DNA from: Patescibacteria group bacterium
Lineage (GTDB): Bacteria > Patescibacteriota > Microgenomatia > JAMCZE01
NCBI GenBank assembly: GCA_023485845.1
Contig: JAMCZE010000010.1
Coordinates: 156,046 to 220,045, forward strand
Length of the DNA: 64,000 nucleotides
Direction: 5' to 3'
The position numbers were made by a program, and so were the translations under genes. Within the stretch, counting starts at the first letter, position 1. Every line of letters begins with the position of its first letter. Below, piece by piece: positions 14,621-56,229 of this stretch. The notes below the pieces were generated by a model. It was not told the origin of the DNA. It worked only from the letters and a program-made list of their open reading frames with translations, and ran no database searches.

Positions 14621-14889
14621 ATAAAGGGATTATACCTTGCTAGCAGCTCATTTCTAGTCTAGCCTTATTGACTACGCAGAAGATACTAGAACCGCCCTGC
14701 ATTTTCTTGGTAGTAGTTACTACTACAGTTCACTGGGATCTACTTGTGCAAGCATTACACAACTATAAACTTTTGAGCACAATAAGTTCGAATGTGTTCC
14801 ATCCAGGGCTGCCAATTTTCACTTTCAGAGTATTTAGCTACTATGTTGAATGGTACTGTCAAGTACCCCTTTTGTTGCACACTCTTTCT

Positions 14890-15654
14890 CTAAACCCGGC
14901 TTAGAAATTTTGCCTTGAATTTGACCGGGGAAGTCTTGAGCTTGGTGTGGATCCTCTCGTGGTTGTAATAGTTGATGGTTTTGTGAATAGCCTCCACAAA
15001 CTCGCCGATCGTCTCAAATCTTTCAAATTCCAATCCTAAGTCTGTTTTAAAGTTGTCGTAGAAGGATTCCTGGTAACCGTTCTCCCAAGGACTGGCTTTA
15101 GCAGACATGCTCACCTGGATTCCCAGGCCTTCTAAAAAGTTGGTGTAATCCTTCGAGTTGTACTCGGCTCCCTGATCAGTGTGAGCCACTACTGGTTTAC
15201 CCACTGTTTTAATGGCATCCAAGAAAGCCTCAAGAACCAACTCTGTAGTGTGCCTGGTGGAAATTGACCAGCCAACAATTTCCCGGGTAAACAGATCCAT
15301 AAAAGTGGCTAGGTAAATAATCCTCTGGTTCCAGGCTAGCCGGGTAAAATCCCCGGCAAAATAGACTCGGGGTTTGATGGGACAACTACCCTTAATTAGA
15401 TTGGGAAACTTTGACAGTGGATTTCCCCAATCTTTCTTTTTTGTCCACCTGGCCTTTCTCTTGTAGGGTTTAATCCCAAATAATTTCATCACTCGTCTGA
15501 CTCGTTTCTTCCCGATTTCCAAAGCCAAAGCTACTCTCCGGTGGCCATAACTAGGATTAGTTTCCAAGATCTTAAGGATTTGCTCTTTTAGAGCCGAATC
15601 TTTTGTCCCTTGCCTAAGGTTGTCGGTGTAAAGATTTCTTCGGGAGATGCCCAA
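14890..15654 (-). CDS. IS3-family transposase OrfB (DDE integrase core)
   Basis: rve-type core: D in HTDQGAEY, E in SPWENGYQESF. The frame is open upstream to the A-run. The track start is TTG. Confidence 0.85.
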   Translation of the reverse strand: MGISRRNLYTDNLRQGTKDSALKEQILKILETNPSYGHRRVALALEIGKKRVRRVMKLFGIKPYKRKARWTKKKDWGNPLSKFPNLIKGSCPIKPRVYFAGDFTRLAWNQRIIYLATFMDLFTREIVGWSISTRHTTELVLEAFLDAIKTVGKPVVAHTDQGAEYNSKDYTNFLEGLGIQVSMSAKASPWENGYQESFYDNFKTDLGLEFERFETIGEFVEAIHKTINYYNHERIHTKLKTSPVKFKAKFLSRV

Positions 15655-15706
15655 AGAATTGGAAATAAGGGACTTGGGTATTTGAGGAAGCTTGGCTTCG
15701 ACAATT

Positions 15707-15961
15707 TTACCTAAGTTTCTTTTTTTTTACCTTCTCCACTTCCAGAGACAAAACCCCAATGATCTCCTTTAGTTGCCGGTTCTCTTTTTTAAGTCTCAGG
15801 TGCTCAATCCAGCTGACTTTGTTGGTGGTGTTCCACCTAAGCCAGCCATAAATGGTTTTGGGGGAGATTCCGTAAGTTTGGGCCAGAGTGGCGGCAGATT
15901 CCCCGGATTTAATCTTGGCCAGGACCTCCTCTTTGACCTCTTTGGCAATAGCGGTTTTCAA
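15707..15961 (-). CDS. IS3-family transposase OrfA (HTH plus leucine zipper)
   Basis: 84 aa, HTH (LAQTYGISPKTIYGWLRW). It ends in the A9G slippery run GTAAAAAAAAAG. Confidence 0.85.
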   Translation of the reverse strand: MKTAIAKEVKEEVLAKIKSGESAATLAQTYGISPKTIYGWLRWNTTNKVSWIEHLRLKKENRQLKEIIGVLSLEVEKVKKKKLR

Positions 15962-16011
15962 AAATATTCACCCCCTTAAATAAGTGTCCTTAGTTTACAG
16001 ACACTGTGTGC

Positions 16012-16040
16012 ATTTTAAGGGGTACCTGTCCTACTGTCAA
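16012..16040 (-). promoter_or_regulatory. junction promoter formed by the abutted IS3 ends: TTGACA (16040-16035), 17-nt spacer, TAAAAT (16017-16012), reading toward orfA of copy A
   Basis: The -35 hexamer lies in the end of copy B and the -10 hexamer in the end of copy A. The 17-nt spacer was read directly from the sequence. Confidence 0.6.
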
Positions 16041-16067
16041 GTACCCCTTTTGTTGCACACTCTTTCT

Positions 16068-16832
16068 CTAAACCCGGCTTAGAAATTTTGCCTTGAATTT
16101 GACCGGGGAAGTCTTGAGCTTGGTGTGGATCCTCTCGTGGTTGTAATAGTTGATGGTTTTGTGAATAGCCTCCACAAACTCGCCGATCGTCTCAAATCTT
16201 TCAAATTCCAATCCTAAGTCTGTTTTAAAGTTGTCGTAGAAGGATTCCTGGTAACCGTTCTCCCAAGGACTGGCTTTAGCAGACATGCTCACCTGGATTC
16301 CCAGGCCTTCTAAAAAGTTGGTGTAATCCTTCGAGTTGTACTCGGCTCCCTGATCAGTGTGAGCCACTACTGGTTTACCCACTGTTTTAATGGCATCCAA
16401 GAAAGCCTCAAGAACCAACTCTGTAGTGTGCCTGGTGGAAATTGACCAGCCAACAATTTCCCGGGTAAACAGATCCATAAAAGTGGCTAGGTAAATAATC
16501 CTCTGGTTCCAGGCTAGCCGGGTAAAATCCCCGGCAAAATAGACTCGGGGTTTGATGGGACAACTACCCTTAATTAGATTGGGAAACTTTGACAGTGGAT
16601 TTCCCCAATCTTTCTTTTTTGTCCACCTGGCCTTTCTCTTGTAGGGTTTAATCCCAAATAATTTCATCACTCGTCTGACTCGTTTCTTCCCGATTTCCAA
16701 AGCCAAAGCTACTCTCCGGTGGCCATAACTAGGATTAGTTTCCAAGATCTTAAGGATTTGCTCTTTTAGAGCCGAATCTTTTGTCCCTTGCCTAAGGTTG
16801 TCGGTGTAAAGATTTCTTCGGGAGATGCCCAA
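16068..16832 (-). CDS. IS3-family transposase OrfB (copy B)
   Basis: Identical to 14890-15654. Confidence 0.85.
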   Translation of the reverse strand: MGISRRNLYTDNLRQGTKDSALKEQILKILETNPSYGHRRVALALEIGKKRVRRVMKLFGIKPYKRKARWTKKKDWGNPLSKFPNLIKGSCPIKPRVYFAGDFTRLAWNQRIIYLATFMDLFTREIVGWSISTRHTTELVLEAFLDAIKTVGKPVVAHTDQGAEYNSKDYTNFLEGLGIQVSMSAKASPWENGYQESFYDNFKTDLGLEFERFETIGEFVEAIHKTINYYNHERIHTKLKTSPVKFKAKFLSRV

Positions 16833-16884
16833 AGAATTGGAAATAAGGGACTTGGGTATTTGAGGAAGCTTGGCTTCGACAATT

Positions 16885-17139
16885 TTACCTAAGTTTCTTT
16901 TTTTTTACCTTCTCCACTTCCAGAGACAAAACCCCAATGATCTCCTTTAGTTGCCGGTTCTCTTTTTTAAGTCTCAGGTGCTCAATCCAGCTGACTTTGT
17001 TGGTGGTGTTCCACCTAAGCCAGCCATAAATGGTTTTGGGGGAGATTCCGTAAGTTTGGGCCAGAGTGGCGGCAGATTCCCCGGATTTAATCTTGGCCAG
17101 GACCTCCTCTTTGACCTCTTTGGCAATAGCGGTTTTCAA
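16885..17139 (-). CDS. IS3-family transposase OrfA (copy B)
   Basis: Identical to 15707-15961. Confidence 0.85.
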   Translation of the reverse strand: MKTAIAKEVKEEVLAKIKSGESAATLAQTYGISPKTIYGWLRWNTTNKVSWIEHLRLKKENRQLKEIIGVLSLEVEKVKKKKLR

Positions 17140-17332
17140 AAATATTCACCCCCTTAAATAAGTGTCCTTAGTTTACAGACACTGTGTGCATTTTAAGGGG
17201 TACCTGTCCACTTTATAAAGATAATGCAACCATAAGGCAAGCGGATTTCCCATTGTTAATTGATGTTTTTTTTGAAAATGCTAAGCCTAATATCCAAAAA
17301 CTTTTGGCTGTAGAAGCAGAAATTATTAGAGA

Positions 17333-17877
17333 GTGACACTCCTCGCAGCAAGCTGCGAGGCATCTGCATTGCTAAAATAGCCTGAGTTGGTCTTTTGATA
17401 TTTGGACATAGTCTTTTGGTCTTCCTTGGTTTCTGATGTACTTTTGGATGACTGTCTCAGAATTGCTTCGTCCTACTGAATTTACGAAATACCCGTCAGT
17501 CCAAAACTGGGCTCCCCAAAGGCTTTCCCTCAACCCGGCAACTCGTTTGAGAAGTTCCCGGGCCAGGATACTTTTGACCGTTCTGGCAATTTTGGTAGGA
17601 GAATATGTAGGCACTGACTGGATCAAAAAATGGACATGATCACCGTCGGCCCCAATCTCCACAAAATGCATCTCGTACCTTTGGGAAATTTCCTGACAGA
17701 TCTGTTTTAGTTGGGCATCCACCTCTGTCGAGATCACGAGTTGCCTTCCCTTGGCCACACAAACCAGATGGTACAAAAGCACCGAGACATTGTGCGCTTT
17801 GTGTATGTAGATACTCACGCATACAATTTTACCCTCTCGCGGCAAAGCCGCGGGGAATGAACCCTAAAAGAGATTCA
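17333..17877 (-). mobile_element. IS200/IS605-family insertion sequence, copy 2
   Basis: Identical to the 545-bp copy 1. Confidence 0.85.
17372..17845 (-). CDS. tnpA: IS200-like Y1 transposase TnpA (copy 2)
   Basis: Identical to 1594-2067. Confidence 0.9.
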   Translation of the reverse strand: MPREGKIVCVSIYIHKAHNVSVLLYHLVCVAKGRQLVISTEVDAQLKQICQEISQRYEMHFVEIGADGDHVHFLIQSVPTYSPTKIARTVKSILARELLKRVAGLRESLWGAQFWTDGYFVNSVGRSNSETVIQKYIRNQGRPKDYVQISKDQLRLF

Positions 17878-17899: not shown

Positions 17900-18355
17900 T
17901 CAGATAACCAGTTTTGCAAAAAGACTTTTGGAGGGAGGCGTGAGTTTAACCTTTGCTAATTCTTCAAGAGTAAACCATTTGTATTCTGACAATTCATCAT
18001 CAAGCTGAACTTTTACCTCACTGCTATTTCTATCATTGATGTCAATTCGATAGACGTTGAAATGCATTTCAACAAGAACCCTCTCATTTGTGTCCTTTAA
18101 GGTTTTTTCTGATGTTCCCGTTCCCTCATCATTAACAAGTTCAGTTGCGTACCCTTCAACCTCTAACCCTATTTCTTCTTTCAGTTCTCTTCTTAATGCC
18201 TGAGTCTTGTTTTCGCCTTGATCCACACCTCCTCCTGGAATATGCCAGCAATCAATATAAACTCCACCGCCAGTTGGATTCTTTTTTACCATCAATAATC
18301 TTTTATCTTTTGAAAAAAGTAAGCCCGATACAATTTCTCTCTTGATCGTTCTCAT
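17900..18355 (-). CDS. NUDIX hydrolase
   Basis: Nudix box GGGVDQGENKTQALRRELKEEIGL. 151 aa. Lies between IS200 copies 2 and 3. Confidence 0.85.
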   Translation of the reverse strand: MRTIKREIVSGLLFSKDKRLLMVKKNPTGGGVYIDCWHIPGGGVDQGENKTQALRRELKEEIGLEVEGYATELVNDEGTGTSEKTLKDTNERVLVEMHFNVYRIDINDRNSSEVKVQLDDELSEYKWFTLEELAKVKLTPPSKSLFAKLVI

Positions 18356-18380
18356 ATTATTTCTTTACGTTGTAATGTAA

Positions 18381-18925
18381 GTGACACTCCTCGCAGCAAG
18401 CTGCGAGGCATCTGCATTGCTAAAATAGCCTGAGTTGGTCTTTTGATATTTGGACATAGTCTTTTGGTCTTCCTTGGTTTCTGATGTACTTTTGGATGAC
18501 TGTCTCAGAATTGCTTCGTCCTACTGAATTTACGAAATACCCGTCAGTCCAAAACTGGGCTCCCCAAAGGCTTTCCCTCAACCCGGCAACTCGTTTGAGA
18601 AGTTCCCGGGCCAGGATACTTTTGACCGTTCTGGCAATTTTGGTAGGAGAATATGTAGGCACTGACTGGATCAAAAAATGGACATGATCACCGTCGGCCC
18701 CAATCTCCACAAAATGCATCTCGTACCTTTGGGAAATTTCCTGACAGATCTGTTTTAGTTGGGCATCCACCTCTGTCGAGATCACGAGTTGCCTTCCCTT
18801 GGCCACACAAACCAGATGGTACAAAAGCACCGAGACATTGTGCGCTTTGTGTATGTAGATACTCACGCATACAATTTTACCCTCTCGCGGCAAAGCCGCG
18901 GGGAATGAACCCTAAAAGAGATTCA
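18381..18925 (-). mobile_element. IS200/IS605-family insertion sequence, copy 3
   Basis: Identical to the 545-bp copy 1. Confidence 0.85.
18420..18893 (-). CDS. tnpA: IS200-like Y1 transposase TnpA (copy 3)
   Basis: Identical to 1594-2067. Confidence 0.9.
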   Translation of the reverse strand: MPREGKIVCVSIYIHKAHNVSVLLYHLVCVAKGRQLVISTEVDAQLKQICQEISQRYEMHFVEIGADGDHVHFLIQSVPTYSPTKIARTVKSILARELLKRVAGLRESLWGAQFWTDGYFVNSVGRSNSETVIQKYIRNQGRPKDYVQISKDQLRLF

Positions 18926-56118: not shown

Positions 56119-56155
56119 TGAAAATTGTAAATTGGAAATTGAAAATTCGCGTGTG

Positions 56156-56229
56156 TGCTCCCGGGCAGAGTCGAACTGCCAGTCTTTCCCTTAGGACGGG
56201 ACTGCTCGATCCAATTGAGCTACGGGAGC
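56156..56229 (-). tRNA. tRNA-Arg (anticodon CCT)
   Basis: Cloverleaf folded by hand. 7-bp acceptor stem GCTCCCG/CGGGAGC, T-loop TTCGACT, anticodon loop GTCCTAA. Confidence 0.75.

Follow-up and report, generated by a model that had tools for sequence, protein, structure and literature searches.

Among the described insertion sequences (IS) close to the element considered here are two groups. Classical IS3-family elements join two overlapping open reading frames (ORFs), orfA and orfB, by -1 programmed ribosomal frameshifting on A6G, whereas in IS1447 (also named IS120) of Clostridium thermocellum the frame is changed at transcription: the run had nine A's in 30 of 30 genomic clones, but 9 of 52 cDNA clones had eight and 8 of 52 had ten, slippage required at least seven A's, and only the A8 mRNA species encodes the transposase; the relatives of IS1447 carry 7-9 A's (Liu 2018, PMC6211511). 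Conserved runs of nine or eight A's in overlapping IS ORFs were proposed as slippage sites by Baranov 2005, who also found that in many bacterial genomes selection against slippage-prone runs becomes visible at nine (PMC1088944); according to the Atkins 2016 review, no IS is known to depend on a +1 shift of the ribosome (PMC5009743). The present analysis concerns an IS3-family element, present in two copies, in a 64,000-nucleotide stretch of DNA (the window) from a Patescibacteria group bacterium (assembly GCA_023485845.1, contig JAMCZE010000010.1, positions 156,046 to 220,045 of the forward strand), in which orfA ends in a run of nine A's (A9) and orfB lies in the +1 frame. By analogy with IS1447 and from the pattern in related loci, transcriptional slippage on this run, mainly loss of one A, is the most likely source of the OrfAB transposase, and we regard it as probable. 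A first-pass annotation of the window had implied that this arrangement is unusual; the arrangement is real, but it has already been described in the literature and is less unusual than was implied. The slippage mechanism itself is already established for an A9 run with orfB in +1, and a specialist will not be surprised to meet it.

On the minus strand, the 3' end of orfA reads GAG AAG GTA AAA AAA AAG AAA CTT AGG TAA. Direct reading confirms the last eight codons as quoted in the first-pass annotation; the interval given with them, 15708-15728, covers the feature but is 1-2 nt short on each side, the 24 quoted nucleotides being 15730..15707. In a three-frame translation, frame 0 ends ...LEVEKVKKKKLR and a stop. 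The +1 frame reads ...WKWRR, a stop and then KKRNLGKIVEAKLPQIPK..., starting right after the TAA embedded in gTAAaaa (the residues following it are KKRNLGKIVEAK) and staying open for 278 codons to 14890, and the -1 frame (...GEGKKKET) stops after three codons. Codon starts fall at 1 mod 3 for orfA and 0 mod 3 for orfB, which places orfB +1 (equivalently -2) relative to orfA on this strand, in agreement with the earlier claim that orfB opens at the embedded TAA, and the claim that the second copy has the same arrangement likewise stands. Because the +1-frame stop and the orfA stop bound it, the shift window listed in Table 1 is the only place in which orfA and orfB can be joined; the two frames overlap by 20 nt, and an A_AAA_AAG heptamer lies in phase within the run. 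About 0.8 A9/T9 runs would be expected by chance in 64 kb (an estimate from 0.266^9 x 128,000), and just two runs of nine or more are present in the window, both inside the 20-nt orfA/orfB overlaps of the IS copies. The presence of A9 alone is therefore unremarkable, but its position and conservation are beyond chance.

The protein encoded by orfA has a helix-turn-helix and a heptad region (best Pfam matches HTH_Tnp_IS630, HTH_28, and HTH_Tnp_1), and in the first copy a Shine-Dalgarno-like GGGGG run lies 9 nt 5' of its TTG start. The orfB frame matches HTH_21 and the DDE catalytic core families rve, rve_2, and rve_3. The first ATG, GTG, or TTG in this frame is a TTG at 15654 that has no Shine-Dalgarno sequence and sits in the middle of a conserved helix-turn-helix, LISxxLGISRRNLY (in context ...K.LIS..LGISRRNLY), which a start at this point would halve, and the closest relatives keep the +1 frame as protein straight from the run (KKRQVGKxxEAKLP). 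Because orfB has neither a start nor a Shine-Dalgarno sequence before its helix-turn-helix would be truncated, and because the +1 frame is conserved, the transposase must be an OrfAB fusion; we infer that orfB is expressed as an OrfA-OrfB fusion joined inside the shift window. The modeled fusion, generated by deleting one A from the run, has 356 residues and scores 237 bits (cut-off 160) against NCBIfam NF033516, the IS3 family transposase, with residues 8-348 aligned to positions 1-368 of the 369 in the model, continuously across the junction. By this match the element is an IS3-family insertion sequence, as the first-pass annotation had it.

When one genome for each GTDB species was scanned, at least 434 related loci came to light. 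Eighty of them (L001-L080) were fetched and searched for orfA, for orfB, and for the longest run of A's close to the stop codon of orfA, and 67 distinct loci were counted. The reliably named hosts are Patescibacteria (Candidate Phyla Radiation), namely Woese-, Ames-, Levy-, Davies-, Beckwith-, Pacei-, Moran-, Falkow-, Staskawicz-, and Doudnabacteria, Saccharimonadales, and others, but it should be noted that many host names of metagenome-assembled genomes (MAGs) look unreliable (e.g. "uncultured Gammaproteobacteria"). The frame of orfB is +1 with a run of A9 in 34 loci, of A8 in 11, and of A6 in one; it is -1 with A5 in 3 loci, A6 in 3, A7 in 10, and A8 in 3; and it is in frame with orfA at one A7 and one A8 locus. 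An A8-A9 run with orfB in +1 thus recurs at the same place in 45 of the 67. With eight or more A's, 45 loci are +1 versus 3 that are -1, whereas with seven or fewer only one is +1 and 16 are -1, an association of run length with frame that is highly significant by Fisher's exact test when shared ancestry is ignored (p = 2e-11). L080, the sole A6/+1 locus, resembles an A7/-1 element minus one A.

In a neighbor-joining tree of OrfB from the 67 relatives, rooted on IS1447, the window element lies within a large A9/+1 clade (54-78% identity), while the A6-7G/-1 elements form a separate clade and the A8/+1 elements form further groups; relatives with A5-A7 and the classical -1 frame are the more distant ones. 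The A7/-1 relatives have the canonical in-phase A_AAA_AAG. On this tree a single lineage holds both the classical IS3 (-1) and the A8-9/+1 arrangements, and the arrangement is conserved together with an intact orfB in elements down to 45% identity. L005, L017/L018, and L028, which lie inside the A9/+1 clade, have A8 with orfB in -1; in L005, the -1 frame arises from one A fewer and two extra nucleotides downstream. That one run position serves either frame is as expected if slippage yields both A(n-1) and A(n+1) transcripts. The distance from the run to the orfA stop varies from 0 to 19 nt among the relatives, and in several of them the shift window is just 11-14 nt, essentially the A-run alone. 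The recoding event is therefore pinned to the run, which bears out the first-pass proposal of A9 as the recoding site.

The composition of the run points to selection at the nucleotide level. In all 32 of the A9/+1 loci that share the register of the window element (NNA AAA AAA AAG), the first A of the run is the third base of a codon, but this codon is TCA in 12 loci, GTA in 6, TTA in 6, ACA in 4, GCA in 2, and CTA and GGA in one each, and so specifies six different amino acids. Elsewhere in the same genes A occupies the third position of 31% of codons, and 68% of Lys codons are AAA. Because the encoded amino acid varies while the third base stays A, the pattern indicates that selection acts on the nucleotide run itself. 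In an alignment of 25 A9/+1 elements, the sole invariant columns around the site are A9GA, with adjacent synonymous positions varying freely, and RNAalifold found zero conserved RNA pairs in the 70 nt 5' and 95 nt 3' of the run in these 25 elements, including no conserved 5' hairpin of the kind present in IS1447 and the Roseiflexus IS630. The upstream fold of the window copy is no better than that of shuffled sequences (z = +0.5). A hairpin 3' of the run in the window copy does surpass shuffled controls (z = -3.8), but it does not recur at a constant position or with a constant shape in the folds of the relatives. A search of Rfam returned nothing in the IS region at E <= 1 and, in the whole window at the gathering threshold, only a tRNA.

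Slippage would operate as follows. As RNA polymerase transcribes the T9 template, the A-U RNA:DNA hybrid would realign, giving some transcripts with eight A's and others with ten; nine nucleotides is approximately the length of the RNA:DNA hybrid of the elongation complex. Unedited A9 mRNA would encode the 84-residue OrfA, a putative DNA-binding and regulatory protein; A10 mRNA would encode an OrfA variant ending in KKKET; and A8 mRNA, together with rare A11 mRNA, would bring orfB into frame and encode the 356-residue transposase (...LEVEKVKKRNLGKIVEAK...), the amount of which would be set by the frequency of slippage. This mechanism is favored because run length tracks the frame, nine A's appear to be selected, and no flanking structure is conserved, and because IS1447 provides a direct experimental precedent. 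It was also the preference of the first-pass annotation, which these same four considerations support. From the precedent and the comparative pattern, we infer that the frame is changed at transcription. Several points nevertheless weigh on the other side. The mechanism leans on analogy with an element that is only 27% identical, and the counts relating run length to frame are phylogenetically non-independent. The 5' stem-loop discussed for IS1447 and for the Roseiflexus IS630 was not found here by folding or by RNAalifold. In addition, tRNA-Lys can re-pair in any frame on a homopolymeric A-run, so that a ribosomal -2 or +1 shift may be possible, and in the window copy the 3' hairpin and the CUU_AGG_U sequence beside the orfA stop could each aid a translational shift.

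The last of these points lead to the alternative that ribosomes on unedited A9 mRNA slip +1 or -2 on the run, or +1 at CUU_AGG_U in the window copy, to produce OrfAB. This is the main competitor of transcriptional slippage, but we consider it unlikely. The A_AAA_AAG in the run is in phase, and tRNA-Lys would re-pair perfectly on it, but a -2 tandem slip needs only about seven A's, and 32 of 32 loci retain a ninth even though the amino acid changes. The hairpin of the window copy would be a candidate stimulator, but the relatives have no conserved stimulatory structure or Shine-Dalgarno-like element, and their run-to-stop distance, as noted above, is variable. CUU_AGG_U is a Ty1-like +1 heptamer formed by the last two sense codons of orfA and the next T, and among the Arg codons in the long ORFs of the window AGG is used least (7.5%); however, CTTAGG is found in none of the 45 +1-type relatives, and the window contains a gene for tRNA-Arg(CCU). 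The heptamer was therefore rejected as a conserved shift site and is probably coincidental in the window copy. Ribosomal shifting would also be without parallel, no IS being known to use it in the +1 direction (PMC5009743).

A more specific form of this alternative involves the host ribosome. Microgenomates are reported to have no ribosomal protein bL9 (PMC7304191), a protein that restrains frameshifting (PMC6815119), and most of the hosts named for the A9/+1 clade belong to this group, whereas those of the A6-7G/-1 clade are mostly Parcubacteria-named MAGs. That OrfAB is made by a ribosomal +1 or -2 shift on the run, or at CUU_AGG_U in the window copy, in Microgenomates that have no bL9 is nonetheless quite doubtful. 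Doudna-, Komeili-, and Buchananbacteria MAGs, which are Parcubacteria-named and for which loss of bL9 is not reported in PMC7304191, carry A8/+1 elements as well; this observation and the unreliable host names weaken the case for tying the +1 arrangement to the loss of bL9. Were the ribosomal explanation true, no IS before this one would have been shown to use ribosomal frameshifting in the +1 direction, and switching between -1 and +1 in this IS3 lineage of Patescibacteria would be tied to the composition of the host ribosome.

Slippage might instead occur at replication, toggling the run in the DNA between an off state (A9) and a fused, on state (A8), with the transposase supplied by an A8 subpopulation. 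Phase variation of this type would accommodate the A8 variants found at tips within the A9 clade (L005, L017, L019, L022, L028, and L034), and IS copies in Nostoc range from 8 to 10 A's (Baranov 2005, PMC1088944), but it is very improbable: all four consensus copies of the element (two in the window, one in each of the further assemblies L081 and L082, described below) have A9, and the A8 variants L005, L017, and L028 have orfB out of frame, in -1. L034 has A8 in frame but is interrupted again downstream, and is thus decayed rather than an "on" allele; L035 and L036 are near-identical loci from the same genome, and the proposal that L034-L036 represent an active, permanently fused allele was rejected on the basis of L034, the one that was inspected, so that these loci carry no weight as evidence here. 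There is as little to recommend the view that no fusion is made, either because each frame gives a protein of its own or because the element is a decaying pseudogene. Gene callers do annotate two genes (in L081 and L082), and some relatives (L034, L047, L049, and L080) are visibly decayed, but separate expression of orfB would sacrifice its helix-turn-helix, the fused protein covers the full IS3 model, the arrangement is kept to 45% identity with orfB intact, and the window carries two identical copies and a junction of their ends; we judge this view to be scarcely tenable. Finally, the first-pass annotation had raised a homopolymer miscall (a true run of A8 or A10) as its alternative, and although homopolymers are error-prone on some sequencing platforms, this is rejected as having a negligible chance of being correct, given that A9 is present in two further independent assemblies of the element (L081 and L082) and, likewise with orfB in +1, at the corresponding site of 34 distinct, independently assembled loci from many studies, and that A10 would in any case send orfA into the -1 frame, which is closed after three codons, and leave orfB still out of frame.

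Table 1. Positions of the element, its reading frames and junction, and neighboring features in the 64,000-nucleotide window.
Feature	Position	Strand	Remarks
IS copy A	14857..16031	-	1175 bp; 5'-GGACAGGTACCCC...GGGGTACTTGACA-3'
IS copy B	16035..17209	-	1175 bp; identical to copy A
orfA, copy A	15707..15961	-	84 aa, TTG start; ends ...EKVKKKKLR, then stop
orfA, copy B	16885..17139	-	In the second, identical IS copy
orfB frame, copy A	14890..15726	-	278 codons + stop; +1 to orfA
orfB frame, copy B	16068..16904	-	In the second, identical IS copy
A9 run, copy A	15720..15728	-	GT[A AAA AAA AA]G in the orfA frame; T9 on the + strand
A9 run, copy B	16898..16906	-	Base-for-base identical to copy A
Shift window	15707..15729	-	Bounded by the TAA of the +1 frame (15729..15727) and the TAA that ends orfA (15709..15707)
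CTT AGG	15710..15715	-	Last two orfA sense codons; with the next T, Ty1-like +1 heptamer CUU_AGG_U
GTA spacer	16032..16034	-	Separates the copy B IRR from the copy A IRL
Junction promoter-like site	16012..16040	-	TTGACA-17 nt-TAAAAT; 11/12 consensus positions
tRNA-Arg(CCU) gene	56155-56229		In the window
546-bp element, three copies	1554-2099, 17332-17877, 18380-18925		Near-identical; ends palindromic
157-aa ORF of the 546-bp element	17372..17845, 18420..18893		...HVHFLIQSVP... motif
151-aa ORF	17900-18355		NUDIX-like by eye

The two copies form a perfect head-to-tail repeat with a period of 1178 bp, which is the 1175-bp IS plus GTA. The IS ends, set by alignment with relatives, are imperfect terminal inverted repeats of about 36 nt (75% complementary in the window copy). 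The right end, ...CTTGACA-3', is of the IS3 type with a terminal CA-3'. The left end begins with GG in the window, L001, and L002, and with TG in L003 and nearly all other relatives; left ends deviate in known members of the family too, being TA in the left inverted repeat (IRL) of IS2 (PMC3219604) and in IS1447 (PMC6211511). No target-site duplication of 3-5 bp is present at the window locus (the flanks are AGT at 17210-17212 and GTA at 14854-14856), and among approximately 25 relatives with both ends recognizable only L015 has one (CGAT/CGAT). This scarcity is unusual for the IS3 family, of which target-site duplication is typical but not strictly defining, and two IS1447 copies are likewise without it (PMC6211511).

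Where the copies meet, the right inverted repeat (IRR) of copy B abuts the IRL of copy A with a spacer of only a few bases, a layout that matches IS3 copy-out/paste-in transposition. A promoter is predicted across this junction: its -35 hexamer is the tip of the copy B IRR, its -10 hexamer lies in the copy A IRL, and it faces orfA of copy A. In relatives with recognizable ends the TTGACA tip recurs, as does a -10-like TAAAAT or TAAACT equally far from the left tip, and the design is known from IS911 and IS2, in which Pjunc forms in circles and dimers (PMC3219604). The spacer is the same triplet that flanks the IRR of copy A (14854-14856); by analogy with the IS911/IS2 model, a GTA derived from the IRR flank would make the non-canonical GG left end (16025-16031 and 17203-17209) the donor end. 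The junction with its promoter-like site suggests that the element is active, and OrfAB is probably made, because such a junction, whether in a dimer or a circle, is a product of IS3-type transposase activity.

The same element, with A9, was found in two other assemblies. L081 (contig JAMCTM010000031.1, GCA_023379465.1) has a single IS copy and corresponds to the window minus one unit, with 0 mismatches over 3575 nt. L082, a Logan contig from run SRR10252151, is exactly one 1178-bp unit, from GGACAGG to GTA, and its borders imply that reads spanning an IRR-GTA-IRL junction should exist, with de Bruijn branching at both unit borders. Either L081 is a collapsed repeat, or the assembly of the window has rendered a chromosomal copy and circles as a tandem. 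Contig L081 breaks inside one copy of a second repeated element in this neighborhood, of 546 bp, two of whose three copies adjoin the IS3 dimer and bracket the 151-residue ORF. The 546-bp element encodes only the 157-residue ORF, which by eye resembles an IS200/IS605-type TnpA.

Experimental proof of the A9/+1 slippage arrangement has come only from IS1447, a Firmicutes element, and the observations extend the arrangement to a distant IS3 lineage that is abundant in Patescibacteria; a literature search for the arrangement in Patescibacteria found nothing. The related elements (at least 434 loci among GTDB species representatives) should be annotated as encoding one transposase made by slippage on a 9A tract rather than two genes. 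With A6-7G/-1 and A8-9/+1 in one lineage, they also constitute a natural series in which to study how the mode of recoding switches.

In its general organization, the window element is similar to IS911, IS3, IS150, and IS2, having an orfA with helix-turn-helix and zipper and an orfB with DDE residues, a transposase obtained only by fusion, an in-phase A_AAA_AAG, and a right end in CA-3', and also a circle or tandem junction that assembles -35 and -10 hexamers at 17-bp spacing (PMC3219604). It differs from the classical elements, which rely on -1 shifting, in that orfB is in +1 and the -1 frame is closed, in having nine A's as opposed to six or seven, in the absence of a conserved downstream stem-loop or pseudoknot, and in that target-site duplications are mostly unseen among its relatives. 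A conserved run of 8-9 A's in the overlap of two ORFs, which here would likewise yield mRNAs of mixed length, is shared with the slippage sites in IS elements of Deinococcus radiodurans, Nostoc, and others (PMC1088944) and with dnaX of Thermus thermophilus; these, however, are other IS families or cellular genes, and for the IS among them the evidence in PMC1088944 is also comparative. The Roseiflexus IS630, which PMC5009743 mentions together with IS studies several of which concern a +1 shift, obtains its transposase through transcriptional realignment, as proposed here, at T5C5 (cited in PMC5009743 and PMC6211511), but with a heteropolymeric motif and an upstream nascent-RNA hairpin, in contrast to the pure homopolymer without a conserved hairpin seen here.

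The closest likeness in mechanism is to IS1447 (PMC6211511). In both elements orfA ends in A9, orfB is in +1, and the run lies at the homologous point past the leucine-zipper region, and the fusion can be aligned to the OrfAB of IS1447 right through the junction (LSLEVEKVKKRNLG versus LSYEVAWLKKNLAS). However, the two OrfAB proteins are 27% identical over their full length, as compared with the 35% (at least 50% coverage) criterion of Liu 2018 for IS1447-like elements, and a long branch parts IS1447 from all 67 relatives in the neighbor-joining tree. The elements also differ in length (1175 bp here versus 1447 bp), in their terminal repeats (about 36 nt starting with GG, or TG in relatives, versus 48-49 nt starting with TA), in the register of the run (NNA AAA AAA AAG versus AAA AAA AAA T), and in the 5' stem-loop, which abuts the run in IS1447 but is not conserved in the 25 sequences compared here. 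Their hosts are Patescibacteria and Firmicutes, respectively, and the IRR-IRL junction seen here was not detected for IS1447. These comparisons place the window element outside the IS1447/IS120 subgroup, in a distantly related IS3 lineage with what appears to be the same solution.

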